From assembly GCA_052034935.1 (NCBI GenBank), contig JBPOIB010000001.1, positions 74,746 to 138,745 of the forward strand: DNA of 64,000 bases, given 5' to 3'. The first letter of the stretch is position 1, and each line of letters begins with the position of its first letter. Below, in pieces: positions 717 through 61,210 of this stretch. The notes beneath the pieces were generated by a model. The model was not told where the DNA came from, searched no databases, and was given only the letters and a program-made list of their open reading frames with translations. The translations under genes and the position numbers were made by a program. The DNA is from Candidatus Moraniibacteriota bacterium (GTDB taxonomy: Bacteria > Patescibacteriota > Minisyncoccia > Moranbacterales > UBA1568).

Positions 717-726
717 CGAGATGAAT

Positions 727-2402: not shown

Positions 2403-2406
2403 ACGT

Positions 2407-2610
2407 ATGAAGAAAGAATCACTCGGCGAATCGCTCAAGAAACTGGAAGCTATCACGGCTTGGTTCGAGGGCCAGGAGGAAATCGATGTCGAAAAGGCAC
2501 TCGAAAAGGTGAAGGAGGGCGTATCGCTCATCAAAGCGAGCAAGGAACGGCTCCGGGAGGTGGAGAATGAGTTCGAGATCGTGAAGAAGGAGCTCGACAA
2601 GAGCGAATAG
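2407..2610 (+). CDS. xseB: Exodeoxyribonuclease VII small subunit
   Basis: A 67-aa helical protein (SLEKLEAITAWFEG...DVEKALEKVKEGVSLIKASKERL) lying 4 nt after xseA. Confidence 0.85.
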   Translation: MKKESLGESLKKLEAITAWFEGQEEIDVEKALEKVKEGVSLIKASKERLREVENEFEIVKKELDKSE

Positions 2611-2660
2611 ACCAAAGCCGGTGCTATACTGAAACAAGAAAACAAACAAAATTTTTTATC

Positions 2661-4361
2661 ATGCATCGGTTTTCAGGAGACATTTCTATCGTGCTCGGCG
2701 GCGCGGCCGGACAAGGCGTCCAGACCGTTGAGACGCTTCTGGTCCAAGTCCTGAAGCGCGAGGGCTATCATGTCTATGCATCGAAGGAATACATGTCGCG
2801 TATCCGCGGCGGAAGCAATTCGACTGAGATCCGTCTCACCTCGAAGAAACGGCGCGCGTATGTCGACCGGATCGACCTTTTGTTCGCGCTCGACAAAAAT
2901 GTCATCCCACATCTCGAACGCCGAACTTCCAAGGATACGATTGTCATCGGCGAGAAGGAAAAAGTTTGCGATACCGAATGCCGGGTAATCGATGTGCCCT
3001 TCACACGTTTCGCCAACGAGCTCGGCCACCCGATCTATACGAGCACGGTCGCGGTCGGTGTCGTTCTCGGGATGCTCAAGGCCGAAGAATCAGTCTTTCA
3101 TGATTACCTCCGGGAGCATTTCGCCCGGAAAGGCGAAGAAGTGGTCGCGAAGAATATCGAAGCCGCCAAAATGGGCTATGTTCATGGTACGCATATCTCT
3201 TTCCTCGAAGGCGTCGAGATTTCTATTCCTCGGAACCGCGATCCCGAAGAGACGCTCCTCATGGAGGGGATTGAAAGCGTCGGTCTCGGAACACTTGCGG
3301 CCGGTTGCAATTACATTAGCTCGTATCCGATGTCGCCGGGCACGGGCCTTTTGACGTTCCTCGCCGCCCATAAAAAAGAATTCGGCGTGGTCGTCGACCA
3401 GGCAGAGGATGAGATCGCCGCTATCAATCAGGGCCTCGGCGCCTGGTACGCCGGTGCTCGCGCGGTCGTGACGACTTCGGGCGGCGGCTTCGCGCTCATG
3501 GGTGAGGGCGTGAGTCTTGCTGGCATCATCGAAACTCCGGTCGTCGTCCATGTCGGGCAGCGTCCCGGCCCGGCGACAGGGCTCCCGACTAGGACCGAGC
3601 AGGCCGACCTCAATCTCGTCCTGTACGCCGGACACGGCGAATTCCCGCGCGCCATCTTTGCGCCGGGTACGCCTGAAGAGGCATATCATGCGATGACGCA
3701 GGCTTTTTATATCGCGGACAAATACCAGGTTCCGACGTTCGTCCTGACCGATCAATTCCTCCTCGATTCAGTGACGACGGTCGTGCCAAAGAACCTGAAG
3801 GCCGCTTCGGCCGAGCAGCATATCGTCGAAACGAAGGACGACTATGCCCGGTATGCGCTCGCGGAAGATGGTGTGTCGCCGCGCGGCGTCCCTGGTTTCG
3901 GCAAGGGACTTGTCGGCGTCGACTCGGATGAACACGATGTGATGGGTCATATCACGGAAAGCGCGGTCGTCCGGATGGAGCAGCATGGGAAGCGCCTCTC
4001 GAAGATCGAAGGTATCCGATCCGAAGCTCTCGCGCCAGCTATCGATGCACAGTCGAAAAAAGCCAAGACGCTCATCGTTACGTGGGGATCGAATCAGGGC
4101 GTTGTCGAGGAGGCACTCGATCTACTTCAGGACAAGGAACTCGGCCAAATCCATTTCGTCCAAGTCTATCCGCTCGATCCGAAAGGGGAGAAACTCTTCG
4201 CCAAAGCCGAGAAAATCGTCGTGGTGGAAAACAACGCTGTCGGACAGTTTGCCAATCTCCTTGAGCAGGAATACAAAATCACCGTCGCTGAGCGGATCCT
4301 GAAATGCGACGGCAATCCGTTTTCCGTCGAAGAGCTCGTCAAACGTTTCAAAAAACTATGA
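2661..4361 (+). CDS. 2-oxoacid:ferredoxin oxidoreductase, alpha subunit (gamma-alpha fused)
   Basis: An N-terminal gamma-like domain ([13 protein letters not shown]...) is followed by a KorA/PorA-type alpha domain. The stop codon overlaps the beta-subunit start (ATGA). Confidence 0.85.
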
Positions 4362-6420: not shown

Positions 6421-7647
6421 TTAGACGGTAAAGCGTTCAAGGGCGGCTTTTAGCGCGTCGATGAATCGATTGATATCGTCGTTCGTCGTGTAGACCGAGA
6501 AGCTGAGACGGGTTGTCGCCGGGAGCAAAAGTGAACGGTGGAGCGGTGCGGCGCAGTGTTCGCCGGCCCGGACACAGACCTCTTTTTCGCCGAGGATCTC
6601 AGCGATATCGTGCGGATGCATACCCTCGAGAGTAAAGGAAAGGATGCTTGGCCTCTTCTTAGCATCTTCCGTACCGAGGATATGAATCTTTTCGCCGAAG
6701 CTTGTCTTCAGACGGTCAATCGCATACAGAGCGATGAGTTCTTCATGGGCGTGGATATTTTCGACGCCGAGTGTCTTTACATATTGGATTGCCGCCGCGA
6801 GGCCGATGGCGCCAGCGATATTCGGCGTTCCGGCCTCGAGATTTTCCGGGAGCGCCTTGTATATGGTTTCTGAACTGCAGGCATCGAGGACCGTGCCGCC
6901 GCCGACATTTATCGGGCGAAGCTGTTCGAGTGCGGACGGTTTTCCCGTGAGGACGCCGATGCCGGTCGGACCGAAGAGCTTGTGTCCCGAGAAGACGAGG
7001 TAGTCAGCGTTCCAATTCTGGAGGTCGACAATCATGTGTCCCACCGCTTGGCAGGCGTCGACAAGGATGAGGGTCCTTGGGTTTTTTCTGCGGATCGCTG
7101 AGATAAGTTCTTTGACTGGGTTTATCACGCCGAAAACATTCGAGACGGCAGAAAAGGCCACGACCGCTGTTTCGCCGTCGATGAGCGAGACGAGATGCTC
7201 TGGGTCAATCTGACCGCTGGTATCGAAGTGTGCGATCCGAAGCTCGGCACCGCTACGATGTGCGAGTTCTTTCCAGGGAAGGAAATTCGAATGGTGCTCG
7301 AGCTCCGTAACAACGAGGTTCTTCTCTGAATCGACCGTATGTCCAAGGCCGAGCGCGACCTGATTGATGCCATGGGTCGCATTCGCGGTGAAGACGACCG
7401 TCTCCTTGCTTTCAACATTCAAAAACTTTGAGACGGTTTCCCGGGCTTCATCAAAAGCCGCGGTCGCGCTCGCCGCAAGCGGGTAGAGACCGCGGCCAAC
7501 ATTGGCCGAATACTCGAAGTAGTAGCGGTTCATCGCCTCGATGACGGCTTTCGGCTTGAGCGCCGTCGCCGCCGAATCGAGATAAACCAGTCTAGGATTC
7601 GACTCAAAAATAGGAAAGTCCCGACGAATAGTTTTTGGATCGAGCAT
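6421..7647 (-). CDS. sufS: Cysteine desulfurase SufS (class II aminotransferase V)
   Basis: IRRDFPIF...VYLDSAATALKP...HK (PLP lysine)...RAGEHCA. The start is taken at MLDPKTIRRDFP (ATG 7647). Confidence 0.9.
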   Translation of the reverse strand: MLDPKTIRRDFPIFESNPRLVYLDSAATALKPKAVIEAMNRYYFEYSANVGRGLYPLAASATAAFDEARETVSKFLNVESKETVVFTANATHGINQVALGLGHTVDSEKNLVVTELEHHSNFLPWKELAHRSGAELRIAHFDTSGQIDPEHLVSLIDGETAVVAFSAVSNVFGVINPVKELISAIRRKNPRTLILVDACQAVGHMIVDLQNWNADYLVFSGHKLFGPTGIGVLTGKPSALEQLRPINVGGGTVLDACSSETIYKALPENLEAGTPNIAGAIGLAAAIQYVKTLGVENIHAHEELIALYAIDRLKTSFGEKIHILGTEDAKKRPSILSFTLEGMHPHDIAEILGEKEVCVRAGEHCAAPLHRSLLLPATTRLSFSVYTTNDDINRFIDALKAALERFTV

Positions 7648-7651
7648 AAGC

Positions 7652-8242
7652 TTAATCAGTGAGGGTATCGAGAAGAATATGAAAGGCTTCAGTTCTGACA
7701 CCGAGTCTTTCTATTCGTTCCATCGCTTCCTGAAAAAATCCTGACACGAGTAGGTTTCGGGCGGCGGCTTTCGGCAATCCGCGTGATTCGGCAAAAAAGA
7801 GAGCTTCGTCGTTCAGGGGAGCGGTTGTTGCAGCGTGATGGCATTTGACATCATGCGCGAGGATTTCCAGAGCGGGCCGAGCCTGGGATCTGGCAAGAGG
7901 AGAGAGAAGAAGGGTACGGCTTTCCTGCGAGGCATCGGAGCGGTGAGCGTCTTTGTCGATGATAATCGCTCCGTCATAAGTGAACGAAGCAGTGCCACCG
8001 AGCGCTGCTTTTACCAGTGCGGAAGAAACCGTGTCGGGCGCAAGATGTTTCTGCACGAGATCAAGCGATTGTCTCGAGTCGCCAGTGCCAGTATAGAAAG
8101 CGAAAACATGTGCCGCCGCGCCGTGGCTAGCCAGTTCAATCGTGATTTTCCCGGTCCGATTGAGCAGGAAGAAAACTATGTTCTCGCTTTCTTCGAGTCG
8201 GTAGACGGTTTGGGTTTCGCTGGAAATATCGCGGTAGCGCAT
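7652..8242 (-). CDS. sufD: SufD-like Fe-S assembly protein (short form, C-terminal domain only)
   Basis: A 196-aa protein between sufB and sufS with SufB/D-family C-terminal helices (LFFAESRGLPKAAARNLLVSGFF). Confidence 0.65.
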   Translation of the reverse strand: MRYRDISSETQTVYRLEESENIVFFLLNRTGKITIELASHGAAAHVFAFYTGTGDSRQSLDLVQKHLAPDTVSSALVKAALGGTASFTYDGAIIIDKDAHRSDASQESRTLLLSPLARSQARPALEILAHDVKCHHAATTAPLNDEALFFAESRGLPKAAARNLLVSGFFQEAMERIERLGVRTEAFHILLDTLTD

Positions 8243-49223: not shown

Positions 49224-50366
49224 ATGCTCACGATTCTCATTTTCGTTTTGGTCCTGGGAGTACTCGTCTTTGTTCACGAGCTCGGTCACTTTGCCGTCGC
49301 TCGCTTTCACGGCATCAAGGCGGATGAATTCGGTTTCGGCTTTCCGCCCCGGATTTTCGGTGTCGTCAAAGACGAAACGACCGGAAAGTATCATTTCGTG
49401 AGAGGGAATGCTGATGTCGCGAGCGAGAATACGGTCTACTCGCTCAACTGGATACCGCTCGGCGGCTTCGTCAAAATCAAAGGCGAGGACCGGAATGCGG
49501 CGGCCGGCGCTGACAGCTTTGCGGAACGCAGCGCTTGGACGAGGATCAAGGTGCTCGGGGCTGGTGTTTTCATGAATTTCCTCCTGGCCTGGCTCCTTTT
49601 CTCGGTCGTGCTCATGCTTGGATTCCCAGAGCAGGTCGATCCGGAGAGGAGTGGACAGTACGGACCGACGAGCATCCAGATTCTCCAGGTTCAGCCGGAG
49701 ACTCCAGCGGATGAAATGGGTCTCAAGGCCGGAGATGTGCTGCTTCAGCTTGACCGTACGCCGGTCGTCACCCTTGATGGCGTTTCGAGCTACATTCGCG
49801 AACATCGCGGACAATCGATTGCGATCGAAGTACGGCGTGGCGACGAGATCGTGACGCTTTCCGCGACGCCGCGAGTGTCTGCACCCGAAGGCGAGGGTGC
49901 ACTCGGCATCAGCTTCTCCGAGACGGCCATCGTCAGCTATCCGTGGTACCAGGCGATCCGACTCGGCTTCGAGCAGACCTATGTGAAGACGGCGGAGATC
50001 CTTGGTGCGCTCGGCGGTATGGTGGCGAGTGTCTTCACCGGAGCGAAAACCCAGGTTGATATCGCCGGACCGGTCGGCATCGTTAACCTGACGAAAGACA
50101 TGAGTGACCTCGGAATCACCTATCTCCTCTATTTCGCCGCCATCCTCTCGATCAACCTCGGCATCATCAATATCCTCCCGATCCCGGCGCTCGACGGCGG
50201 GCGCATCCTCTTTGTTCTGATCGAGAAAATCAAGGGTTCGCCGGTCTCGACGAGAGTGGAAGGATATGTGCACCAGATCGGATTCATCCTCCTCATTATC
50301 CTCATGGTTCTGGTTACCTTGAATGACATTATCCGGCTCGATTTTTGGAGCCGCTTTACCAGCTGA
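49224..50366 (+). CDS. rseP: Site-2 protease RseP (M50 zinc metalloprotease with PDZ)
   Basis: HELGHF zinc motif, a PDZ domain (GLKAGDVLLQLDRTPV), and the LDGG motif in the C-terminal TM region. Confidence 0.85.
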   Translation: MLTILIFVLVLGVLVFVHELGHFAVARFHGIKADEFGFGFPPRIFGVVKDETTGKYHFVRGNADVASENTVYSLNWIPLGGFVKIKGEDRNAAAGADSFAERSAWTRIKVLGAGVFMNFLLAWLLFSVVLMLGFPEQVDPERSGQYGPTSIQILQVQPETPADEMGLKAGDVLLQLDRTPVVTLDGVSSYIREHRGQSIAIEVRRGDEIVTLSATPRVSAPEGEGALGISFSETAIVSYPWYQAIRLGFEQTYVKTAEILGALGGMVASVFTGAKTQVDIAGPVGIVNLTKDMSDLGITYLLYFAAILSINLGIINILPIPALDGGRILFVLIEKIKGSPVSTRVEGYVHQIGFILLIILMVLVTLNDIIRLDFWSRFTS

Positions 50367-50424
50367 AAACCGCTTCGACGTGGGATGATTGCTCCAGGTG
50401 GAGGCAGAGAAGAGCCCTATTGAC

Positions 50425-50521
50425 CCCGTTAGAGATAACGTGGGTTTTTCATGCGAAACGCCCTGCCGATAATGCCTGAGATGAAGCGTTTTCGATGCCT
50501 AATAACCGAATCTCTAACGGG
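50425..50521. mobile_element. MITE-like palindromic-terminus element, copy B (97 bp, inverted relative to copy A)
   Basis: CCCGTTAGAGAT at 50425-50436 and ATCTCTAACGGG at 50510-50521. It is flanked by TTGAC (50420-24) and G+TTGAC (50522-27); the right flank forms the -35 box of the downstream promoter. The interior shares GGCATC(G)AAAA / CCTGCC blocks with copy A in reverse orientation. Confidence 0.5.
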
Positions 50522-50522
50522 G

Positions 50523-50551
50523 TTGACAAAAAGCTCTTTTTTTGCTAGTAT
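50523..50551 (+). promoter_or_regulatory. Sigma70 consensus-like promoter TTGACA-N17-TAGTAT
   Basis: TTGACA at 50523-28 and TAGTAT at 50546-51, 30 nt upstream of the wzz-like ATG. The same TTGACAAAAG…TAGTAT architecture recurs at 54516 and 63733. Confidence 0.5.
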
Positions 50552-50581: not shown

Positions 50582-51211
50582 ATGCCGATGAACAATGTTT
50601 TGGCTCTACTGTGGGGAAAAAAGGGGAGTGTCTTCCTTTTTGGTGTCTTCGTGTCCGCTGCGGTCTTCTTCGTTGAGACAGCGGTATCGCCGCGTTACGC
50701 TGTGCGAACCGACTTCATGGTGGTACAATCATCTGGCTCTCAGGACTTCTATACGCTTTTCAAATCGTCCGAATACCTGAGCAAGGTCCTTTCCGAATCG
50801 CTCTATAGCGAGCGCTTCATCAACGCCGTCATTGAGACGGGCAAGGTGAGCGCACAGGGATTCTTGCCGACCAATAAGAAAGACCGGCTCACTGCTTGGC
50901 GCTCGATGGTCGCGGTCGAAAAGAATATCGAACTCGGCATGCTTGCCGTGACCGTGAAGTCCGATACCGAGAAAGAGGCGTCGAAGACGATGGACGCGAT
51001 TTCGGATGTTCTCATTAACCGCAACAAAGAATTCCGCGGCGGCGATGAGAAGGCGATCGAGATCCGCATCCTCTCCGGTCCGATCAGCGACCGTAATCCG
51101 AACCCGAAAGACCTACTTGTACTCGCTCTCGCAGGGTTCATCGCCGGCGCTTTCATCCGCTCCGCCTGGATCGCGGTGAAAGTCATCGATACTTCAGCGA
51201 AACGAGGATAA
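50582..51211 (+). CDS. Wzz/chain-length-determinant-like protein (two TM, short periplasmic domain)
   Basis: An N-terminal TM followed by SPRYAVRTDFMVV (the P-x-Y-x-A…V pattern of Wzz N-termini), and a C-terminal TM (LLVLALAGFIAGAFI). Confidence 0.55.
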   Translation: MPMNNVLALLWGKKGSVFLFGVFVSAAVFFVETAVSPRYAVRTDFMVVQSSGSQDFYTLFKSSEYLSKVLSESLYSERFINAVIETGKVSAQGFLPTNKKDRLTAWRSMVAVEKNIELGMLAVTVKSDTEKEASKTMDAISDVLINRNKEFRGGDEKAIEIRILSGPISDRNPNPKDLLVLALAGFIAGAFIRSAWIAVKVIDTSAKRG

Positions 51212-51349
51212 TATTTCTGGAGAAAGAGGGGGCTCTCGCCTCCTCTGGACCATCTCTCTCGAGAACGAGGGGGTTGTTCCAGAGGATAGCGTCGAAAAAG
51301 TTCGTTCAAAACTTACTGCTTACAATCAATCAACACAAGGAGTCTTAGC

Positions 51350-52210
51350 ATGCGATTCACATCGCTCGCTCTCATGTCAGTCCTGACGGTGCTCGTTGGC
51401 TGTTCGTCACTTCCCCGCGATAGCGGCTTCGAAGTGCGGACGGTTGAAGCGACCGGCCGCCAGGAGCCGTGGCAGAACCGCGCGCTCAACCGCAGCGTGT
51501 TCGCCAAGAACGGCATCGCAGTGGTCTACGTCGCACTGCCGCAGCCGCTCCCGGAAAAGTGGAAGAAAGAATTCGTCGACACCGCCCGAACCTACGAGGT
51601 CCGGGAGGGACGGCGGAAAGTCTCGAAGTCGCTGGTCCGGGAAGTATTTCGCGCCGTCGCGACCTATGGTCCGAACGAGGTATCGATCTATGACGCCGTC
51701 GTCGATCGGGACAAGGGCTTCATGGTCCTCATCCCGGTTTCCGATCGGCGCCGGATTGAAGGGAAGTCCCTCCATATCTTGTCTTCGGACGGGAAGTGGG
51801 GGATGACGACCCTCGGTGTCATGCTCGAGTTCGAGAAGGGGTTCGCCCCGGACCGGATTCTCGCCACACCGAGCTCGCTCGTGACCCAAGTGATCCATCT
51901 TGATCCGGAAGGCGACGAGAATGCGAGGCGCATGCTTGATCGTCTGGTCAAGTCTTTCCCCGAGCCGTTCTGGTTCCGGGGCAAGGCCGAAGCCTACATC
52001 GGCAAAAGCGATGTGGTCACCGTCATCGCCGAATTCACTTCGGTCGACAGTGCAGCCGATCGGCTGATCTCGTGTACGAGCCTCAAGCTCGGACCGAATA
52101 CCGTCGCGGCACTCCCTCTCGTCGCGACACTCTATGCCTACCAGGCCGTGAGCGCGCTGACCAAGGAAGACTGCTACCAACCGATCCGTCTCCCGGATGC
52201 CCCGACATAA
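51350..52210 (+). CDS. Lipoprotein, unknown function
   Basis: A signal peptide with lipobox LVGCSS, 286 aa, and an AAGGAG Shine-Dalgarno. GC rises to ~62% from here. Confidence 0.55.
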   Translation: MRFTSLALMSVLTVLVGCSSLPRDSGFEVRTVEATGRQEPWQNRALNRSVFAKNGIAVVYVALPQPLPEKWKKEFVDTARTYEVREGRRKVSKSLVREVFRAVATYGPNEVSIYDAVVDRDKGFMVLIPVSDRRRIEGKSLHILSSDGKWGMTTLGVMLEFEKGFAPDRILATPSSLVTQVIHLDPEGDENARRMLDRLVKSFPEPFWFRGKAEAYIGKSDVVTVIAEFTSVDSAADRLISCTSLKLGPNTVAALPLVATLYAYQAVSALTKEDCYQPIRLPDAPT

Positions 52211-52374
52211 GGGCAGCCGGATCCGAGTCGGAGCGATCTGTAAAGAAAGGAGCTCATCCGTGAGCGACCCATCCGTTTTGAAACCGTCCAGGGATCAAGC
52301 GTGGGTCGCTCATATCGACCCACCTTTGTTCCTGGGTTTACCAAATGAACCTATGGCTGAAGGAGGCCGAAATC

Positions 52375-54354
52375 ATGACTGACTCTGTCCAATCCGGCGC
52401 TCCTAAAAGCGTCCAAACCCACGCGACGAGCGATCGTCCGTGGTACTTCCATCCTGTCGCAATCATCATCACTGCCGTCCTCATCGCCATCGTGGCAAGC
52501 TTCCTCACCTTCACCCCTCAGGGTGCGGCGTGGATGAAGTCCCTCCGGGCTTCGGGTACGGCTGTTCCGATGGCTGTGGCTCCCGCTGCTTCGGCTGCCG
52601 AGACGGCTGCCAGCGCTGCTGCCCAGGCTGAACCGCAACCGGCGGCAGCTGACGCAGCGACCGAACCCAAGACCTACACGGTCGAAAAGGACGACTGGCT
52701 CTCGCTGGTTTTCCCGAACGACTGGAAGTCTGTCTGCGAACTGAACCGCGACATCCTGAAGAAGGGTTGCGGTCACATCGTCGAGGGCCAGGTGCTGAAG
52801 CTCCCCGAAGGCGTCCAAGCCACGGAAAAGAGCGCCCGCGCCAGGAAGCCCCAAGGCAAAAAGGTCGTCAAGACCGAAAAGCCCCAGGCTTCGCGTGCGG
52901 TTCTGCCGAAGACAAACGCTGCAGGCGAAATCCTGTACGCGAGAGTCGGCGCGGCACCCCTGAACGGCTGCGGCAAGCGCGACATCGCTGATATCAGCAA
53001 GGAAGCATGGAATGTGCTCGGCCTGTCGGAAGACGACCAAGCTTACCTCGTGCTGAATGCTGACCTGAAGTACGGTCCGCGCATCAATGCCACGGCCCAT
53101 TCCGGCATCGTGCAGCTCGTGCCCGACATGCGTCTCGATCAGGTCACCTTCTGCCGCAAGGGCAAGGTGGTCGCGATCGGTCCCATGCGCACGGCCTGGA
53201 ATCAGGATACGGCGGTCTACGGCGAACGGTTCGTGCTTCCTTCCGGCAAGTTGCTGGTGTGGATGCGCAACTGCTTCAATTGGGTCATCCTCCCCGAGGA
53301 GAAGAAGGCACTTCCTGTGCCCCCTCCTCTCCCCGAGGAGCCCCCGATCGAGCCGCTGCCGCCCGAACTACCTGTCTCAGTGCCACTGCCTGTGGTCCCG
53401 CCGCCGACCGTCGCCGAAGCCCCCAAAGGCCTGTGCGATTGGATCGACATGGCTGGCGCCCTCGGCCAGCACCATGTCCCTCGTCAGAACGGGGACAAGG
53501 CAAGCTCTGACTTCCTCACCTTCGTCTTGGACTGCCAACAGCGCCTCGAAAGCAATGATGGTTCCTGGGGCATCGGTGGGAAGGCTGAATACTCTGCCTG
53601 GCATGGGACTGCCAACCGTGGTGTCGGCAAGTACGAAGGCTGGAACTACAAGGCGATGGTTTCGTACCGCCAGATTATGGACGAAGGGTACGACTGGGGT
53701 GTGGCCGCCGGCGTCGGGCATCAGCGCGAGCGCTACCATCAGGACAAGTACGCTTCTCGAAGCGACTATGACCTGGTGACCGTCTCGCTGGTCCATAACG
53801 ACTACCGTCGCCGCATGGCCGGTGAGACCTGGGACGTGGAACGCCAGTATTACGGCGGCATCACGATCCCGATCGCATCGGAGCTCAGCCACACGTGGAA
53901 CGGCGAGAAGATCGCCGACACGTCCGGTATGGGTCGCCTCAAGTTCGGCGTCCAAGCTGGCGCCCGCTGGTGGTTCTACGAGTCCCAAGATCTGCCGTTC
54001 CTGCCGTATCTCGAAGGCGGACTGTTCGTCCAGCATCCGACGAGCGCGTCGGGCAATGCCATGATCGGTATCGCTGATCCGGCCCGCATCTGTGGCATCG
54101 GCATCGGCATCGACCAGGACTTCCAGAACGGCGGCAACCCCGTCGGTGCCTGGGGATGGAACTGCGACCCCTTCCAGGGTGCTCGTGTCGTCCGCTCCAA
54201 GTACCGCAAGCATCAGGTCATTACCGATGCAGCGAGGAGGGGCGTCACGATCGAGGAGAAGGACGGGTATATCCAGAGCATCCGCTTTGGACCAGAATGG
54301 CTCAAGACGCAAGGTCTGACCATCGTGCCCGCTCCCGATTCGAGTAAGCAGTAA
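52375..54354 (+). CDS. Membrane-anchored LysM-domain protein with Pro-rich linker and large uncharacterised C-terminal domain
   Basis: GAAGGAGG Shine-Dalgarno 7 nt before ATG 52375. A TM helix, then LysM (YTVEKDDWLSLVFPN…GHIVEGQVLKLP), a linker PVPPPLPEEPPIEPLPPELPVSVPLPVVPPP, and a ~320-aa Trp/Gly-rich domain of unknown fold. Confidence 0.6.
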   Translation: MTDSVQSGAPKSVQTHATSDRPWYFHPVAIIITAVLIAIVASFLTFTPQGAAWMKSLRASGTAVPMAVAPAASAAETAASAAAQAEPQPAAADAATEPKTYTVEKDDWLSLVFPNDWKSVCELNRDILKKGCGHIVEGQVLKLPEGVQATEKSARARKPQGKKVVKTEKPQASRAVLPKTNAAGEILYARVGAAPLNGCGKRDIADISKEAWNVLGLSEDDQAYLVLNADLKYGPRINATAHSGIVQLVPDMRLDQVTFCRKGKVVAIGPMRTAWNQDTAVYGERFVLPSGKLLVWMRNCFNWVILPEEKKALPVPPPLPEEPPIEPLPPELPVSVPLPVVPPPTVAEAPKGLCDWIDMAGALGQHHVPRQNGDKASSDFLTFVLDCQQRLESNDGSWGIGGKAEYSAWHGTANRGVGKYEGWNYKAMVSYRQIMDEGYDWGVAAGVGHQRERYHQDKYASRSDYDLVTVSLVHNDYRRRMAGETWDVERQYYGGITIPIASELSHTWNGEKIADTSGMGRLKFGVQAGARWWFYESQDLPFLPYLEGGLFVQHPTSASGNAMIGIADPARICGIGIGIDQDFQNGGNPVGAWGWNCDPFQGARVVRSKYRKHQVITDAARRGVTIEEKDGYIQSIRFGPEWLKTQGLTIVPAPDSSKQ

Positions 54355-54382
54355 GTCCACAAGTCGGGGGAGTTCCCTCGTA

Positions 54383-54420
54383 GGGGCGGCGTCGATCACA
54401 CTCGATGCCGCCCTTTTTCT
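54383..54420 (+). terminator. Rho-independent terminator
   Basis: A 12-bp stem GGGCGGCGTCGA / TCGATGCCGCCC with loop TCACAC, followed by TTTTT. Confidence 0.6.
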
Positions 54421-54515
54421 TTTTCCGTCGCAGTAAGGTGGACAAGAGTAAAAAAAGCCGATTGCAGCAGTCATTTTGAGGCTCATGAAAGCCATTTTTT
54501 TATACTGATACGGGC

Positions 54516-54544
54516 TTGACAAAAGCCAGTTTTTGCTCTAGTAT
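54516..54544 (+). promoter_or_regulatory. Promoter TTGACA-N17-TAGTAT
   Basis: TTGACAAAAGCC…TAGTAT, ~85 nt upstream of the ATG at 54628. A strong hairpin (CCGGCATTTCCC-ggat-GGGAAATGGCG, 54563-54590) lies in the 5'UTR. Confidence 0.5.
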
Positions 54545-54627
54545 GTAGGGTCATCTTCCTTGTCCGGCATTTCCCGGATGGGAAATGGCGAACCTCTTTA
54601 CCAACCAGCCTTGAAAGGGCGTACACC

Positions 54628-55344
54628 ATGAAGACCTCCGTCTCCATCCTGATGGCTTTCGCCATCGCCATCCTGCCGGGTCTCGCGCTCGCGCAGGCCA
54701 AGCCCACCGTCGCCGTCGATGGCAACACCGATGCCGTGGGCAAGCTGCTTCCGACCGGTGGCACCAGCATGACCGCCACCTCCGACGGCAAGACCACGAC
54801 CCTGACCTTGCGCCAGCTGTACGCCTTCGGCGAAGCCGGCCTCGGCAAGGGCGAGAACGGCGCCAAGAAGAAGCTCGACATGGAGCAGGGCACCGCGTAC
54901 ATGCTGCGGGCCAATTCCCGCGACTGGCGCGGCGGCCGGACCGCGGCAAGCGTCAAGCTCGACGACGACAAGGGTGCGGTCATCCTGGCCAAGGGTGTGA
55001 TCACCGACAACACGGTGACGTTCACGTTCCCGAGCGGCCGCGCGAAGCCGGGCGATCCGTTCGACTGCAAGAGCACCAATTTCCTGGTGCAGCCCAAGAG
55101 CGGCAACCGTGCCGATCGTGCCTGGCTCGGCCACCCCGGCTGGGCCGCCGCCAACACGGCGCCGAACATCGGCGACTACATGGTCCTCGCGGGTGACGAT
55201 GCCCGTTTCCCGGCGACCGCGCTCTGCTATGACGCGAACGGCAAGCTGGTGCCGCTGACCCCGGCCATGCGCGCCGAGCTCTCGAAGATCATCAACAAGC
55301 CCGAAGGCGCCGACAAGGCGACCCGGGTGGCCGCGGACAACTGA
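54628..55344 (+). CDS. Secreted protein, unknown function
   Basis: A signal peptide (MKTSVSILMAFAIAILPGLALAQA), 238 aa, no known motif. High-GC codon usage. Confidence 0.6.
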   Translation: MKTSVSILMAFAIAILPGLALAQAKPTVAVDGNTDAVGKLLPTGGTSMTATSDGKTTTLTLRQLYAFGEAGLGKGENGAKKKLDMEQGTAYMLRANSRDWRGGRTAASVKLDDDKGAVILAKGVITDNTVTFTFPSGRAKPGDPFDCKSTNFLVQPKSGNRADRAWLGHPGWAAANTAPNIGDYMVLAGDDARFPATALCYDANGKLVPLTPAMRAELSKIINKPEGADKATRVAADN

Positions 55345-55367
55345 CCTGCAAGCCTGCCGCAAGCCCG

Positions 55368-55412
55368 AAGGGCTCCCAACCGAACGCAACACGTTCACCG
55401 GGAGCCCTTTTT
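55368..55412 (+). terminator. Rho-independent terminator (long loop)
   Basis: AAGGGCTCCC … GGGAGCCCTT followed by TTTTT. Confidence 0.5.
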
Positions 55413-55439
55413 CATACCTAAAAATAGCGTTTTCATTCA

Positions 55440-55468
55440 TTGACAAGAAAGACTTTTTATAGTATCAT
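55440..55468 (+). promoter_or_regulatory. Promoter TTGACA-N17-TATCAT
   Basis: TTGACAAGAAAG…TAGTATCAT, ~105 nt upstream of ATG 55573. Confidence 0.45.
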
Positions 55469-55572
55469 GGGGAGTCAATTCCGGGCTTGAATAAAGCCTG
55501 GCATTGGCAGGTTTTTCAAGTCCCTTCCCATCTAGTCTGATTTATTTTCAGGCCACAACTCAGGAGTTTGCC

Positions 55573-56118
55573 ATGCAAGCCACACGTCCCTTTTTCTCGT
55601 TCCGCATCGCCTGCGCCGTACTGCTTCTCATCGGCGTCGCGTTCCTTGCGAACCCGGCCCGTGCGGAGACCGTCAAGGTCGAAGGCAATGCGCCCACCCC
55701 GACCATCGTGAGCATCGTGGCCAAGGGTGCCGGCCAAGGTGAAGTCACCATCACCGGTGTCCAGTTGAAGTCCAGCCTGTCCTACTGCCTCATCGGCGTG
55801 GGGCGCGGCAACTGGTACGGCACTGCGACCAAGGTCCAGCTCGAGAAGATCGGCTGCGCCAAGGCCGTCAGCGGTTCGGTAACCGTGCCGATCCGTCTCG
55901 ATGCCAAGCGCTACGAAGCGAACGGCAGCGTCATCGGCTACATCCCGATCGTGACCGACGCGAACGGCGTCATCATCGATTGGCCGCAGAAGCCCGTCGG
56001 TGCTCTCACGTTCGAGCGCACGAGCGGCAAGCCGGATGAGGCCATCGCCGTCTTCTGGGCGACGAACGGCCAACCAAAGCTCGCCACGGCCGAACAAGCC
56101 ATGACCATCAACGACTAA
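55573..56118 (+). CDS. Secreted protein, unknown function
   Basis: A signal peptide ending ANPARA, 181 aa, and an AGGAG Shine-Dalgarno. The start was moved to ATG 55573 from the upstream alternative in the track. Confidence 0.6.
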   Translation: MQATRPFFSFRIACAVLLLIGVAFLANPARAETVKVEGNAPTPTIVSIVAKGAGQGEVTITGVQLKSSLSYCLIGVGRGNWYGTATKVQLEKIGCAKAVSGSVTVPIRLDAKRYEANGSVIGYIPIVTDANGVIIDWPQKPVGALTFERTSGKPDEAIAVFWATNGQPKLATAEQAMTIND

Positions 56119-56127
56119 GGAGAACGC

Positions 56128-56877
56128 ATGTTCCATCGACTCATCGGAGCGCTCCTTGCGCTCCTTGTCTCGGGCTTCGTCTGGTCCGCGCCCTGTGCAC
56201 CGGGCTTGCCTGAGCGCCTCATCCCAGAGGCGGGGAAGGAGGGCACCGCCTTCTTTGCGAGCGAGACCATCAAGGACGAGTACCAGAATCCGGCCTGGAT
56301 GGCCAGGCAGAAGTTCGACCGTCTGGTTGGCATGTGGAACGCCGTGACGGTGTACCCCTGCGACCGCGGCCGGCCGGCGACGATCGAGTTCCACTCGTTC
56401 GAGATCGTCCGGCTCGACAAGACGACTGGCCGTCTCGTGCCCGAGCTCACCCTCGTGTTCGATGGTTCCACTGGCTCGTCGTTCGACGACATCAGCCAAT
56501 GGAAACGCGCCCCCGAATGGTGGGTGAACGGCCGGGCTGATCGCGAGCCTTCGGTCGTCAGCGTGAAAAGCGGCGTGTTCCGGGTCGACCTGAAGTCGGT
56601 GCCCGACAACATCGTCCACATGTGGACGAGCCGCATCGCTGCCAAAGCTGGCGAGATCTACGGTATCCGGGCGAAGGTCCGGATCGCCGGCGATGCCCGC
56701 TTGCAGGTCGCCATGGATTACTGGAAGGGCTTCGAAAGCCCCGAAGGAAGGCCCTGGAAGCCGGCTTGTGAAGGCATGGCCAACTGCGAAGCTTGGCTCG
56801 GCGACTGGTACGGCGATACCGGTGGCAAGTTCGTCACTGTCGTCTCGCCGCGGTCACTCCTCGGCAAGTCCTACTAG
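56128..56877 (+). CDS. Secreted protein, paralog A of a tandem pair
   Basis: A signal peptide and AAGGAG Shine-Dalgarno. It shares TAFFA(S/T)ETI…EYQ, LVGM(W/L)NAVTVYPCDRG, GDARLQ…MDYW(K/R)G, and C(E/Q)AWL…GDT.GKFVT blocks with 57051-57818. Confidence 0.65.
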   Translation: MFHRLIGALLALLVSGFVWSAPCAPGLPERLIPEAGKEGTAFFASETIKDEYQNPAWMARQKFDRLVGMWNAVTVYPCDRGRPATIEFHSFEIVRLDKTTGRLVPELTLVFDGSTGSSFDDISQWKRAPEWWVNGRADREPSVVSVKSGVFRVDLKSVPDNIVHMWTSRIAAKAGEIYGIRAKVRIAGDARLQVAMDYWKGFESPEGRPWKPACEGMANCEAWLGDWYGDTGGKFVTVVSPRSLLGKSY

Positions 56878-56895
56878 CAGCAATGCTGCTCTCTC

Positions 56896-56935
56896 GGCCC
56901 CAATGGATTTACAATCCGGCGGGGCCTGTTTTTTT
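56896..56935 (+). terminator. Rho-independent terminator
   Basis: GGCCCC …19 nt… GGGGCC followed by TGTTTTTTT. Confidence 0.5.
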
Positions 56936-57050
56936 ATCCGCTCATACCCTTGACAAAATATAAAATAAGGAGCATTATATAAAGTCATTTTCCAGACACT
57001 TCCGTTTGGAAGTGACGCCCTTTCAGCCCCTTACCAATAGGAGTTCCGCC

Positions 57051-57818
57051 ATGAAGGCAATCTGGAAATCATTTTTCGCTTTCGTTTTCGTCCTGTCCGG
57101 CCTGAGCCCGGCCATGTCCCAGACCCTGTCTGGCGTCTGCCCAGCACCGGTGCCGACCGCGAGTCCGACCATCCCGCAAGGCGTGGCGACTGGCGACACG
57201 GCCTTCTTCGCGACCGAGACGATCGCGCCGGAGTATCAGCCGCCCTCGAACATGTACAACCAGGGCTTCAACTACCTGGTGGGCATGCTGAATGCGGTGA
57301 CGGTCTATCCGTGCGATCGCGGCAAGGCAGCCAAGATCGAACTGAACAGCCTGCGCGTCATCCAGCGTGATTTCGTTGGCGTCGAAACGGTGGTGCAGCA
57401 CGTCACCTTCGGCCGCGGCTGGCAGAAGCCCAACAGTCTGGTCTACAAGACCTTTTACCGCGAACCGGGCTGGTTCACGAGCGGTGCGCCCGAAGCGCAG
57501 CCGACGCTCGCCTCGATCGCGCAGCAGACCTACGCCGTCGACCTGCGGTCCATCCCGAAGGGTATCTTCCATGCCTGGACGAATCCGCGGACGCCGGCCA
57601 TACCCGGCTATGCCTATTTCGTCGAAGTGGTGGTCCGGGTGACGGGTGATGCGCGCCTGCAGCTCGGCATGGACTACTGGCGCGGCAGCGACTCGGACTA
57701 CACCGGCTGGACGCCCGGCTGCACCGGTTCGAACAACTGCCAAGCGTGGCTGTCGAACTGGCTCGGCGACACGAAAGGCAAGTTCGTGACCTGGCGGGCG
57801 CCGTCGATGGCCTTCTGA
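57051..57818 (+). CDS. Secreted protein, paralog B of a tandem pair
   Basis: A signal peptide (MKAIWKSFFAFVFVLSGLSPAMSQ) and an AGGAG Shine-Dalgarno. It is a paralog of 56128-56877, and has its own promoter-like TTGACA at 56950. Confidence 0.65.
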   Translation: MKAIWKSFFAFVFVLSGLSPAMSQTLSGVCPAPVPTASPTIPQGVATGDTAFFATETIAPEYQPPSNMYNQGFNYLVGMLNAVTVYPCDRGKAAKIELNSLRVIQRDFVGVETVVQHVTFGRGWQKPNSLVYKTFYREPGWFTSGAPEAQPTLASIAQQTYAVDLRSIPKGIFHAWTNPRTPAIPGYAYFVEVVVRVTGDARLQLGMDYWRGSDSDYTGWTPGCTGSNNCQAWLSNWLGDTKGKFVTWRAPSMAF

Positions 57819-57861
57819 CGACTCCTGCGAGATTCCATTCTCGCGTACTCGCCTGATGACA

Positions 57862-57900
57862 AGCCTCACTTTTCGCAACCACGAAGGGTGAGGCTGTTTT
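57862..57900. terminator. Bidirectional terminator between convergent genes
   Basis: AGCCTCAC …18 nt… GTGAGGCT followed by a T-run. It sits between the + gene ending 57818 and the - gene ending 57905. Confidence 0.5.
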
Positions 57901-57904
57901 ATTT

Positions 57905-59299
57905 CTAGTAAGAATCCTGCAGCTCGCGGGGGAGCGAGTGATGGAAGAGGGCGAGGAAACCGCCGACGACGATCGCGAGGATCCACTGGACCGGGGTATT
58001 CTTGAAGACATTGTCGGAGAGGCTTGCGATGACGAGGGTCGCGAGGAGGAGTAGGAGAAGGACTGCCATGTTCTTCAGGCTGTGGCTCGGGGAAAGGCGC
58101 TTCACCTGGATGATCGGAAAGGCGAAAGTGACGAGATAGAGCACAAGGACACCGAGACCGACCAGGCCGCCTTCGACATAGAACTTCACGAAATCGTTGT
58201 GGGACTCGTTCGAGCCGAAACGTTCGCCCCGCAGCTGCTCGGAGGAGATGCGAAAGGTGTCGAGGCCGCTGCCGTAGCGGACTCGCTCTTCAAGTTGGGT
58301 CTTCAAGATCATGTCGTGCCAGAGGTTTTGCCGCCAGACGATCGATGAGTCGGCCGTCGGATTGAGCGCTTCGACGACGCGCTCCTTCACGGCCGGAACG
58401 AAAGCGGTGAGCACGATCGGGAGCAGGATGAGCGGCAGGAGGAGAAAACGAAAGCGCCAAAGCGCGAGGAGGAGTAGGAAGACAAAGAGCGCGACCCACG
58501 CGATGCGCGCGAACGTGAGGAGGAGCGTGAAGAGGACGAGGCTGATATAGAGGAGCGTGAGGAGTCGCGCACCGTCTTTCCGGGCGTAGACGATCCCGTA
58601 GATGGTCGCGACGGCGGCCACGGTGAAGAGGTAGAGACTGAAGACATTCGGATGGCTGAAGGTGCCGAAGATGCGGAGAGCGGAAACGTTCTCGTCGGAG
58701 AGTCCGATGCCGAAGGCGAACTGGTAGAGTCCGAAGGTAATCGGGATGAGACTTGAAATGAAGATCGCCATGAGAAGCCGCCGGTAATCGCGGTAGCGCT
58801 CCACACTCGCATAGGCGATGAAGCCGACGACGAAGAGGTCGAAGATGCGAAGCGCTTCCTGAGCCGTGCTCGACGGTGAGATCGAATAGACGAGGGTGCC
58901 GAGACCCCAGGTGATGACGAGGCCGTAGGGGACGACGAGCGCATAGCGGGTGAGCGCGCGGGCGTGGAGGAGGATGAAGACGATGCCGAAGCCGGCGATG
59001 CCGAGGCCGAGGAGCTGGGAAAGCGAGAGCGACAGTCCGAAGAGATCGAGCGCGAGGTATTGGGACGAATAATCGAGCGACATGCGGACCACGATGAGCG
59101 TCATGAGGAGCGCGAGCGGATTCCGGAAGAGCGCGACAATCCCGGCGATGCCCGCCATGAGCGCGACCGGGAGGAGAAGTGAGACTTTGGCGAAAACCGC
59201 GAGGAGTGCGAAAAGCGAGAATAAGGCGAGTGAAACGAGATAGGCGCGCGGGTCGGCCCAGATCGGTGTCTCTTTCAGCGCGGAAAGCTCGGGATTCAT
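57905..59299 (-). CDS. O-antigen ligase / Wzy_C-family polytopic membrane protein
   Basis: ~12 TM helices, with RIFGTFSHPNVFSLYLF matching the Wzy_C motif R..G.....H.N..S.YL. Confidence 0.7.
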   Translation of the reverse strand: MNPELSALKETPIWADPRAYLVSLALFSLFALLAVFAKVSLLLPVALMAGIAGIVALFRNPLALLMTLIVVRMSLDYSSQYLALDLFGLSLSLSQLLGLGIAGFGIVFILLHARALTRYALVVPYGLVITWGLGTLVYSISPSSTAQEALRIFDLFVVGFIAYASVERYRDYRRLLMAIFISSLIPITFGLYQFAFGIGLSDENVSALRIFGTFSHPNVFSLYLFTVAAVATIYGIVYARKDGARLLTLLYISLVLFTLLLTFARIAWVALFVFLLLLALWRFRFLLLPLILLPIVLTAFVPAVKERVVEALNPTADSSIVWRQNLWHDMILKTQLEERVRYGSGLDTFRISSEQLRGERFGSNESHNDFVKFYVEGGLVGLGVLVLYLVTFAFPIIQVKRLSPSHSLKNMAVLLLLLLATLVIASLSDNVFKNTPVQWILAIVVGGFLALFHHSLPRELQDSY

Positions 59300-59958
59300 G
59301 ATGGTTTTTTCCAGACAAGCGTATACGTCATCGCGAGCCCGAAAAAGCGGTTTGGGATGAGCTTGAAGTTGTCGATACCGGCTTCTTTGGCGAGGGCGGA
59401 GAGTTCCGGACCGGTGAGGAGTCTCATATAGTCGCCGGCAGCCCAGCCTTTGCCGAGCCTCGTCGCGACCCAGTCGAAACCAGCTTTCGGAAGCAGGATG
59501 TGAAGGAGTGGAATCCGGGTGTGGATCTCGATCGGGAAATGCCGGTTCGGCATGGTGAGATAACCGCGCTTTCCCACGCGGTAGAGCTCAGTAACGAAAG
59601 CAAGCTGCTGGTCGCGTTCGCCGACGTGCTCGATGACGGCGTTCGAGTAGGCGATGTCAAACTGATTATCGGTGAACGGTAGTTTTGTCCCGTCGGCCGA
59701 AACTGCCGTGACCGACGGGTAGCGATCCTGGAATGCACTGAGATCAGATTCGATCGCGACGGCGGTGATATTTTCCGGATGCGTGTAGTGTTGCTCAAGG
59801 TAGTTATCGGACGGCGAGTATTCGGTGACGTTCACGCCAACATCGACAATCCGGTCATCTGGGCCCGGAGTCATGAGAGCGAGAAATTGAGCCCATTTCT
59901 TGGTGCGGCTTTTTTCCGAGACGGATGCGGCGAGCGCTTCGATCAATGGGAGGGGCAT
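59296..59958 (-). CDS. Class I SAM-dependent methyltransferase
   Basis: IVDVGVNV (motif I-like) …FDIAYSNAVIEHV (motif II/III). The stop overlaps the ligase start (ATGA). The start is uncertain: ATG 59958 is chosen, with upstream alternatives to 60021. Confidence 0.65.
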   Translation of the reverse strand: MPLPLIEALAASVSEKSRTKKWAQFLALMTPGPDDRIVDVGVNVTEYSPSDNYLEQHYTHPENITAVAIESDLSAFQDRYPSVTAVSADGTKLPFTDNQFDIAYSNAVIEHVGERDQQLAFVTELYRVGKRGYLTMPNRHFPIEIHTRIPLLHILLPKAGFDWVATRLGKGWAAGDYMRLLTGPELSALAKEAGIDNFKLIPNRFFGLAMTYTLVWKKPS

Positions 59959-59998
59959 AGGGTAGGAAGAATCAAAAGGATTCAGTATACTGCATGAT

Positions 59999-61210
59999 AT
60001 GCGCGTGCTTCTCATCAACAAGTTCCACTACCTGAAAGGCGGGGCGGAACGGGCATATTTCGACACTGCCCATATTTTAACAGAAAACGGCCATGAGGTC
60101 GCTTTCTTTGCCATGAAGCATCCGGAGAATCTCACGACCCCGTGGCAGCGGTTTTTTGTCTCGCAGGTTGACTACCATGACGAGCGCGCGGGACTCTGGA
60201 CCAAACTCCGAGCTGCGGCGCATATCATTTGGAACTTCGAAGCGGCCCGGAATCTCGAAGCACTCATTCTCGAGTGGAAGCCCGATGTCGCCCATCTGCA
60301 CAATATCTATCATCAGCTCTCACCCTCGATTCTCTGGACGCTGCGGAAGCATAAGGTGCGGGTCGTCATGACGCTTCACGACTACAAGCTCATCTCGCCG
60401 AACTATAGTCTTCTGGTGCGCGGCAAGGTCTGGGATTCGACGAGTGGTGTCTGGGCGATTTTCGATCAGGCGGTCCAGAATTCGACGTTGAAAAGCGCGA
60501 TTTGCGCTTTCGAAAAATGGATTCACGGGTTTCTTCGAAGCTACAGTAAGGTTGACATGTATCTCGCGCCGAGCCGTTTCCTCATCGAGCGTTTCCGCCA
60601 GGCGGGCTTTCATCATCCGATTAAGCATATCGTCCAGCCGATCCGCCCCTTTCCACCAGAGCCGGAGTATCAGGAGGGCGGCTACTTTCTCTATTTAGGA
60701 CGCCTCGCCGAAGAGAAAGGCGTAGCGACGCTTATTGAAGCTGCGTGGGAGCTTCAGAATGAGGTGAAGATAAAAATCGTCGGGAACGGCCCGGATGAGG
60801 CGAAGCTGCGGGCTTTAGCTAAAGGACTCGGTAATATCGAGTTCCTCGGCTACAAGACTGGAGAGGAGTGGGAAGCGGTGCTCCGTGGCGCCCGCGCCCT
60901 TGTCTTACCCTCACTTTGGTATGAGAACATGCCCTATGTCATCCTCGAGGCACTGTCGCGCGGCAAGCCCGTCATCGCCTCGCGCATGGGCGGCATCCCG
61001 GAGCGGGTTATCGAGGGCGTGAGCGGCTGGCTTTTCGAAGCGGGCAATTCCAACGATCTCGTCCGGGCGATACGGAAGCTGATGCTGTTTCCGTCGCCGG
61101 AGAAACTTTCCGAGACGTGCTATAAAAGTGTTTCGGATGCTCGGCCGGAGAGCTATTATGAAGAATTGATGAAAGTCTACTCGGGTCCGCGCATTGATCC
61201 GCCCCTGTAA
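59999..61210 (+). CDS. Glycosyltransferase family 1 (GT4-type)
   Basis: An N-terminal GT4 fold, and C-terminal YLGRLAEEKG…LPSLWYENMPYVILEALSRGKPVIASRMGGIPE. Confidence 0.8.
   Translation: MRVLLINKFHYLKGGAERAYFDTAHILTENGHEVAFFAMKHPENLTTPWQRFFVSQVDYHDERAGLWTKLRAAAHIIWNFEAARNLEALILEWKPDVAHLHNIYHQLSPSILWTLRKHKVRVVMTLHDYKLISPNYSLLVRGKVWDSTSGVWAIFDQAVQNSTLKSAICAFEKWIHGFLRSYSKVDMYLAPSRFLIERFRQAGFHHPIKHIVQPIRPFPPEPEYQEGGYFLYLGRLAEEKGVATLIEAAWELQNEVKIKIVGNGPDEAKLRALAKGLGNIEFLGYKTGEEWEAVLRGARALVLPSLWYENMPYVILEALSRGKPVIASRMGGIPERVIEGVSGWLFEAGNSNDLVRAIRKLMLFPSPEKLSETCYKSVSDARPESYYEELMKVYSGPRIDPPL

Follow-up and report, generated by a model that had tools for sequence, protein, structure and literature searches.

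Among the described small mobile elements of bacteria, those closest in form to the element considered here are the Correia elements of Neisseria. They are ~100-200 bp long, non-coding and bounded by terminal inverted repeats, they have short target duplications and occur in many copies near genes, their presence varies between strains and their transcripts fold into hairpins. The Correia ends can generate promoters and serve as cleavage sites for RNase III (PMC10969869, PMC2649163). Another system relevant for comparison is piggyBac (its features are given in PMC5381638), together with its prokaryotic relative IS1380 (PMC10813416). Here we analyze a stretch of 64,000 nucleotides (referred to below as the window) from a Candidatus Moraniibacteriota bacterium (assembly GCA_052034935.1, contig JBPOIB010000001.1, positions 74,746 to 138,745). 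The element in question, copy B, interrupts the spacer between a gene for an RseP-type protease and a gene for a CpsC/Wzz-like protein. Copy B is very probably a miniature inverted-repeat transposable element (MITE), that is, a 99-bp non-coding, non-autonomous DNA transposon with 13-bp ends (YCCCGTTAGAGAT), inserted into the TTGA of a -35 box. It has the structural properties by which such elements are recognized: small size without coding capacity, terminal inverted repeats, a target-site duplication, several copies (two in 64 kb) and, at both window loci, filled as well as empty alleles. Insertion took place with a 4-bp TNNA duplication, the affected -35 box and start codon and their spacing were preserved, and the family has moved both within and between genomes.

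Copy B occupies positions 50424-50522 (no strand assigned). Its perfect left and right terminal inverted repeats, each of 13 bp, lie at 50424-50436 (CCCCGTTAGAGAT) and 50510-50522 (ATCTCTAACGGGG), both given for the plus strand. The region reads ...CTA TTGA C-CCCGTTAGAGAT [73 nt] ATCTCTAACGGG-G TTGA CAAAAAGCTCTTTTTTTGCTAGTATTCAACG..., and a long hairpin is predicted for the element (z = -5.5). The 12-mer CCCGTTAGAGAT has four exact occurrences in the window, at 727-738 and 50425-50436 on the plus strand and at 810-821 and 50510-50521 on the minus strand. These form two inward-facing pairs, and no match was seen in any of 100 window shuffles. An independent inverted-repeat search returned the same two pairs with perfect 14-nt arms, 71 and 73 nt apart (I14, I15), as the sole perfect 14-nt inverted-repeat pairs of such type in 64 kb. 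The 13th base pair of the ends is C..G in copy B and T..A in the other pair, copy A.

The exact boundaries come from relatives in which the site is empty. Syntenic loci were obtained via homologues of the downstream CpsC/Wzz-like protein, which also mark the organism as Moranbacteria-like (Patescibacteria). In six other assemblies the orthologous locus, consisting of the ribosome recycling factor (RRF) gene, rseP, the spacer and the CpsC/Wzz-like gene, contains uninterrupted TATTGACAAAAGGCTCTTTTTTTGCTAnTAT with the same promoter; at the same site the window has TATTGA[99-bp element]TTGACAAAAAG (alignments A2, A4). The element is missing from loci L123-L128, L247 and L248, where the uninterrupted site reads ...TATTGACAAAAGGCTC... 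and the empty-allele junction is TATTGACAAAAG. The spacer of these relatives is ~100 bp shorter and includes ...AGAGCCaTATTGACAAAAGGCTCTTTTTTTGCTAnTATT..., an uninterrupted TTGACA-N17-TAnTAT promoter, in agreement with the promoter scan of L123. Each empty site carries one TTGA, inside the intact promoter. Since the window differs from the empty sites by exactly [CCCCG...CGGGG] and a second TTGA, the element extends from 50424 to 50522 (99 bp) and has 13-bp ends and a 4-bp TTGA duplication. A delimitation with 12-bp ends and a 5- or 6-bp duplication was rejected, because copy B would then require an unexplained extra G and because three other loci (L069, L086 and L103, see below) contradict it.

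The left TTGA of the duplication (50420-50423, plus strand) is an orphan half of the old -35 box, while the right one (50523-50526, plus strand) forms the first four bases of the working -35 hexamer. The downstream TTGA together with the original CA restores TTGACA at an unchanged distance of 17 bp from the -10 box, so that the promoter sequence is intact. This sigma-70-type promoter, TTGACA-N17-(TGc)TAGTAT, was identified at 50523-50551 (plus strand) by the promoter scan with 10/12 matches plus a TG-extended -10 box, and the ATG at 50582 follows 30 nt after its end. The same promoter is preserved in every empty relative, and identity between relatives is 88-92% in this region versus ~62% in the rest of the spacer. 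By protein identity the empty relatives rank as L247 (96%), L123/L124 (88%), L248 (87%), L125/L126 (84%) and L127/L128 (79%). Because even the closest of them, L247, is empty, the insertion of copy B is recent, and it postdates the split from this relative. In a further relative (L122, 89%) this same TTGA is occupied by an element other than copy B, with the variant ends CCCCGTTAGAAG... and ...CTTCTGACAGGG. One of these ends has two transitions, the interior cannot be aligned to that of copy B and the terminator arm described below is lost. This copy B-like element probably represents a separate event at the same site and is decaying.

The empty alleles bear on most of what an earlier note, made from the window sequence alone, had proposed for copy B. 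The note described 12-bp inverted termini flanked by TTGAC on the left and by G-TTGAC on the right, and read the flanks as a TTGAC duplication. The exact 12-mers and the flanks are indeed present; the true ends are 13 bp long, as judged from the empty sites and from the complementarity of the 13th base pair in 121/127 copies of the family, and the duplication is the 4-bp TTGA. Its placing of TTGACA-N17-TAGTAT 30 nt upstream of a wzz-like gene is confirmed. The idea of insertion into a pre-existing -35 hexamer, the retention of the promoter sequence through the duplication and recent activity are supported. The gene name fares less well: the downstream gene (50582-51211, plus strand, 209 aa) has only weak matches (TIGR01006, E 2.8e-6, far under the cut-off; Pfam Wzz, E 0.41), and its assignment as a CpsC/Wzz-like chain-length determinant is accordingly weak. 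The upstream gene, at 49224-50366 on the plus strand, codes for an RseP-type M50 site-2 protease (Pfam Peptidase_M50 and PDZ), and the RRF gene is also in the neighbourhood. Copy B adjoins a polysaccharide/cell-surface locus (50582-61210) that includes, besides the CpsC/Wzz-like gene, Wzy_C (57905-59299) and GT4 (59999-61210) genes.

The target site has a second predicted feature, a terminator-like hairpin after rseP. In the empty allele the predicted fold consists of the arms AAAGAGCC and GGCUCUUU around a 12-nt loop, AUAUUGACAAAA, which contains TTGACA, and is followed by a U-run. In the window the 5' arm lies at 50404-50415 and the 3' arm plus T-run, GCTCTTTTTTTGC, at 50533-50545 (both plus strand), and the element sits in the loop between them. 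In the fold predicted for this filled allele, the outer stem continues to enclose the element hairpin (-53.7 kcal/mol, z = -6.6). A simple terminator scan called neither the filled nor the empty form, as the loop exceeds the limit of the scan. With the -35 box of the downstream gene lying in the loop of the hairpin behind rseP (window 50404-50545; L123 1925-1957), terminator and promoter overlap to an unusual degree, an arrangement kept in all relatives. We propose that the hairpin formed by the element ends would let the interrupted terminator stem still close, and that both promoter and terminator would continue to function after the insertion.

Copy A (726-822, no strand assigned) is a 97-bp element of the same family with the ends TCCCGTTAGAGAT and ATCTCTAACGGGA. 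It reads GAG A TGAA [T-CCCG...CGGG-A] TGAA TTAC..., and an xseA-like open reading frame (ORF) with HRDC, OB fold and Exonuc_VII_L domains begins at A822. The same element is present at the same place in L129 and L131. The site is empty in L130 (83% identity), where the xseA start codon follows the upstream gene after 14 nt. Comparison of the empty and filled alleles indicates that TGAA was duplicated, that the original ATG was left upstream and that the last base of the element together with TG rebuilt the start codon. Thus, the left TGAA (722-725, plus strand) with A721 keeps the original ATG (721-723), and element base A822 with the TG of the right TGAA (823-826, plus strand) makes up the present start codon of xseA (822-824). 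Copy A is the product of the same kind of event as copy B, in this case at a start codon, with the TGAA of ATGAA as the target.

Beyond their ends, copies A and B seem to have nothing demonstrable in common. The earlier note had considered their interiors related and inverted; the best local alignments (AATAACC; GGCATC[A/G]AAA) are not above shuffles in either orientation (p = 0.30 and 0.15), and no BLAST cluster unites the two copies. No Rfam family matched copy B at the gathering score or even at E <= 10, and for copy A none reached the gathering score, with only chance-level matches (E 1.1 and 5.5). The tRNA scans of the window found just two tRNAs, both unrelated to the elements, and metagenome scans for the A-specific and B-specific interiors gave 0 matches.

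Several further observations concern copy A and its relatives. The interior of copy A contains a 19-codon ORF (MASKWNRQDEVIKSVSLTG, window 765-825), the TGA of which overlaps the xseA ATG (ATGA); it is kept in L129 and, with a GTG start, in L131. In a more distant xseA relative (L249) the contig starts at a break that falls exactly on a degenerate sequence resembling an element end (ATCCCGTTAGAGAA), 86 bp before xseA (L249 1-86). This suggests that repeats of this kind break assemblies and that the xseA spacer has been struck repeatedly; L249 is of no help on the question of copy A conservation. The metagenome-assembled genome (MAG) GCA_041730415.1, the source of L122 and L131, is labelled Undibacterium sp., and its contigs are syntenic with the Moranbacteria-like window at 77-89% protein identity. 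Either this label or the binning is probably wrong.

To see how widespread such elements are, one genome per species was scanned for the pattern CCGTTAGAGAT-N55-85-ATCTCTAACGG. The scan returned at least 120 loci with 127-128 copies, and all family counts given here are among the matches listed. By accession prefixes they come from at least 96 assemblies (one per species), the hosts being many classes of Patescibacteria, Omnitrophota, Planctomycetota, Nitrospirota, Elusimicrobiota, WOR-3, Ratteibacteria and others. Host contigs include two of Omnitrophota (420 and 593 kb) and one of Nitrospirota (1.7 Mb). The median size is 101 bp, in a sample that is censored by the search pattern, and the end consensus is the 13-bp sequence given above. 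The flank logo can be written as T-N-N-A-Y-C|CCGTTAGAGAT ... ATCTCTAACGG|G-R-T-N-N-A, where Y and R are complementary in the 121/127 copies already mentioned. Directly outside the 13-bp ends, the 4-mers on both sides are identical in 76 of the 127 copies, compared with 11.4 expected (maximum of 25 in 1000 shuffles), and their consensus is TNNA. The most frequent duplications are TGAA/TTCA in 35 copies, TAAA/TTTA in 11, TCAA/TTGA in 10 and TCCA/TGGA in six. Self-complementary duplication centres are rare (9/127 copies), and there is no exact TTAA. In the listed loci the ends are nearly always paired and solo ends occur at about the chance rate, which makes the pair of ends the unit. Within five MAGs, similar interiors are found at different, unrelated genes with different duplications (L005/L082, L011/L017, L012/L081, L052/L076 and L099/L118). 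Nested and tandem copies exist as well.

The positions of these copies follow the pattern set by copies A and B. Of 128 copies, 45 have an ORF of 60 codons or more whose start codon consists precisely of the final element base (R) and the adjoining TG. Copies with the TGAA/TTCA duplication are at start codons in 27 of 32 cases, compared with 41% under a generous, and hence conservative, null (p = 5e-7) and 7% under a cruder null based on gene calls. Wherever a start-codon copy has an exact duplication (33/33), the original start codon is kept upstream (ATG in 32 copies, GTG in one). The T..A variant of the ends is at start codons in 36/52 copies versus 7/68 for the C..G variant (p = 2.6e-11). 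In L069, L086 and L103 the far side has ATGnA and the gene side GTGnA, which matches the prediction for a C..G-ended element with a TGnA duplication. All 10 copies with the TTGA duplication yield TTGAnn, and eight of them are part of a strong -35/-10 pair, defined by at least 5/6 matches in the -35 box, at least 4/6 in the -10 box and a spacing of 16-18 bp; the corresponding fraction of all TTGA sites is 4.2% (p = 4e-10). In two loci (L095 92-189, L116 3989-4085) the element abuts tRNA-Pro(TGG), whose 5' acceptor sequence is re-formed by the end CGGGG together with the duplication CGTG. The 5' end of tRNA-Pro is a third kind of rebuilt signal, after start codons and -35 boxes. An association with stop codons was considered and dropped (only 5/122 copies).

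Copy B is, therefore, a typical member of a class and not a coincidence. The target of the family is TNNA, with the surviving copies concentrated where the duplication and the end base restore a signal. This pattern may reflect target choice, or the survival of only self-repairing insertions where there is almost no spare intergenic DNA; we suppose that target choice and purifying selection in very compact genomes would both contribute. The earlier note had pointed out that both window copies stand on expression signals and had taken this as a sign of a recently active small mobile element with a target preference. Copy A does rebuild the xseA ATG and copy B the -35 box, and the more than 120 further copies in at least 96 genomes, with the duplication, start-codon and -35 statistics above, bear this out. 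Empty sites and other copies, whose joint absence the note had named as evidence to the contrary, clearly both exist.

The family is also wider than the exact pattern searched, as variant ends recur in many loci: CCCGTTAGAAG... and CCCGTTAGAAAT, with CCCGTTACATTT as another variant. In L008 (1996-2202) a variant element with ends TCCCGTTACATTT and a TAAA duplication has a standard element (2041-2138) nested inside it. L047 (5947-6055 and 6424-6472) has mini-elements of just 49-50 bp, two of them in tandem with exactly the 4-bp TTCA between them. Two Nitrospirota genomes harbour clusters of 4-5 copies in ~1.5 kb (L089 5275-6170, L109 5357-6879), the latter just upstream of a tmRNA gene (7327-7679). 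In L034 (5897-5998) and L062 (1406-1510) the whole interior is a complete tRNA gene, for tRNA-Ala(CGC) and tRNA-Pro(CGG), respectively, and there is no flanking duplication. These may be tRNA-carrying elements, or the ends may serve as a processing stem. The commonest neighbours of the elements elsewhere (L003, L020, L024, L050, L086 and others) are envelope genes, coding for epimerases, GT4, sugar transferases and type II/IV secretion E/F proteins.

As to the mechanism, a transposase supplied in trans would bind the 13-bp ends and make a 4-bp staggered cut, and a DDE cut-and-paste enzyme seems the most likely candidate. There are, however, results that weigh against a simple MITE family. No transposase, integrase or nuclease candidate was found with Pfam among the 53 window ORFs (ten of which are without any family match), and no autonomous partner or transposase in ~0.9 Mb around 120 other copies. 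Nor is the element present in IMG/VR viral contigs, where 14-mer matches are unpaired chance ones and the paired pattern has 0 matches. An exact duplication is missing from 51/127 copies. The same 13-bp ends recur without change in different phyla, while the interiors are unrelated, even within one genome; such conservation of the ends exceeds what simple decay of old copies would give. In addition, the window and L131 have 90.7% identity in copy A, compared with 66-83% for the neighbouring coding DNA. Finally, where two start-codon copies have similar interiors, both are oriented alike with respect to their unrelated downstream genes, in 13/13 pairs (~11 independent contrasts, p near 5e-4). 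Taken together, the orientation bias and the conservation of copy A suggest that some copies are under host-level selection and not purely selfish. Candidates for autonomous copies (ends 130-4000 bp apart with a matching duplication) proved to be two neighbouring MITEs or chance matches, and a 'solo' end in L062 (at 2934) lies inside an ordinary ORF. The recurrent proteins near the elements are housekeeping or envelope ones, not transposases.

Host-level selection is what one would expect if the elements, having arrived by transposition, were then kept as domesticated regulatory hairpins for their action in cis. This would add to the transposon reading rather than replace it, and we regard it as possible but rather unlikely. 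Such hairpins may act as RNase III-cleavable or stabilising 5' hairpins, in translational coupling at start codons, or as terminators or insulators by promoters. Correia elements offer a precedent, since the ends of these MITEs can be RNase III sites and carry promoters (PMC10969869, PMC2649163). Apart from the orientation bias, the conservation of copy A and the preference of the T..A variant for start codons, several structural details fit this idea: the inverted end tip (ACGGG) is in the gene-distal half in 12/13 cases, the interiors hold ACGGG 11 times and CCCGT 16 times versus 2.8 and 2.7 expected, and many copies have a small hairpin and then CCT just before the gene-side end. Furthermore, stop codons are encoded at the right end, TAA at -7 and, together with ATGA, TGA at +1, and 10/33 upstream mini-ORFs traverse the whole element and stop exactly there, so that termination-reinitiation would be possible. 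Yet at each of the two window sites there are close relatives that lack the element, the subfamilies have unrelated interiors and the copy B-like element in L122 is decaying. The orientation bias could also result if insertion were directional, or if selection acted against only one of the orientations. As for the patchy conservation, the nucleotide identity of L129 to window positions 39-3260 jumps between ~72 and 100% over 4 kb; recombination mosaics appear to be common among these Moranbacteria-like populations, could account for it and weaken the inference of selection on copy A.

The remaining alternatives question transposition by a DDE enzyme, or transposition altogether. Movement as a single-strand hairpin by an HUH- or tyrosine-type enzyme, as in REPIN-RAYT or IS200/IS605-like systems, is very improbable. 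It would fit ~100-bp, hairpin-forming, extragenic elements with no linked transposase, which a single-copy host-encoded enzyme could move, and the flank tetramers (TTAC-like, TCAA-like) recall IS608-type target words. Such systems, however, make no target duplications, whereas here 76/127 copies have exact 4-bp ones of variable sequence that are single in empty sites; the ends, moreover, are a simple perfect inverted repeat and not REP-type imperfect palindromes. We give slightly less credit still to a vertically inherited small RNA gene or riboswitch-like leader with a conserved closing stem, despite the strong predicted stems (z = -4 to -6.6) and the location of copies at the 5' ends of genes. 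There is no Rfam match, non-homologous interiors leave nothing to co-vary, close relatives differ in presence with exact duplications, the copies adjoin unrelated genes, and copy B sits upstream of the adjoining promoter. The chance that the element is a recombination site (an integron attC-like site or another target of a site-specific recombinase) or a fortuitous palindrome is negligible. GTTAGAG and CTCTAAC in the ends do resemble the attC core words, but their order is reversed (GTTAGAG ... CTCTAAC versus RYYYAAC ... GTTRRRY), there are neither cassette arrays nor an integrase in the window ORFs, and variable 4-bp duplications favour transposition. A chance palindrome is excluded by 0 shuffle matches and more than 120 loci.

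We thus retain the interpretation of copy B as a MITE, and the family-level pattern, more than the single insertion, is of main interest. Members of the Candidate Phyla Radiation (CPR) have tiny, dense genomes in which, according to the usual description, mobile DNA is scarce. In the literature we found neither the end sequence in such a context nor MITEs linked to Patescibacteria, CPR or Omnitrophota, and a 2024 review of MITEs in prokaryotes is silent on these phyla and on start codons; the family is apparently undescribed. Identical 13-bp ends in at least 96 species would imply either a conserved transposase that circulates among these groundwater/biofilm lineages or repeated horizontal spread. 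The self-repairing geometry suggests how a transposon may persist where almost every intergenic base is functional, and would account for ATG-to-GTG changes of start codons and for split-and-rebuilt promoters. In practical terms, the ends and the TNNA target represent a candidate transposition system for organisms without genetic tools, and the elements give rise to broken contigs and to miscalled start codons in MAG annotation. More tentatively, and with rather low probability, the family might be moved by a host-encoded or piggyBac/IS1380-like enzyme and might constitute cross-phylum ~100-bp hairpin transposons specialised for expression signals, some copies of which may, in streamlined genomes, have become oriented cis-regulatory modules that serve, for instance, in translational coupling or in RNA processing at the start codon.

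For all the general likeness to Correia elements, the ends (26 bp in Correia), the duplication (TA versus the 4-bp TNNA) and the hosts (Neisseria) all differ. Correia elements belong to one genus, whereas the present family occurs in several phyla and has interiors that differ entirely from one subfamily to another. Moreover, the promoter is not brought by the element; rather, the host -35 box or start codon is split and then rebuilt by the duplication and the end base. With piggyBac/IS1380 the family shares a 4-bp T..A duplication, 13-bp ends with CCC at or near the tip, asymmetric sub-terminal repeats and footprint-free empty sites. In contrast to the TTAA target of that group, its duplications are TGAA, TTCA, TCAA, TTGA, TAAA, TTTA and others, and the 12-19-bp ends of that group begin with CCC, whereas the tip of the 13-bp ends here is YCCC, with an extra Y. 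Neither among the window ORFs nor near the 120 other copies was a piggyBac- or IS1380-type transposase found, and we would treat this likeness as a lead only. REPINs are likewise ~100-bp extragenic hairpins with no linked transposase, but they have two imperfect REP palindromes and no target duplication, in place of the simple perfect ends and 4-bp duplication seen here. Insertion sequences (ISs) that form hybrid promoters through an outward -35 box in the IS end resemble copy B in being mobile elements at the -35 position of a host promoter. Such an IS supplies a new -35 box, while here the host box is duplicated and preserved, and the insertion of copy B is for this reason expected to be near expression-neutral. 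A parallel in tolerance is provided by the Rickettsia palindromic elements (RPEs), which are likewise small, palindromic and mobile and are borne by reduced genomes at sensitive positions. RPEs, however, reside in-frame inside coding sequences, whereas the elements of the present family are tolerated at start codons and promoters because these signals are rebuilt.

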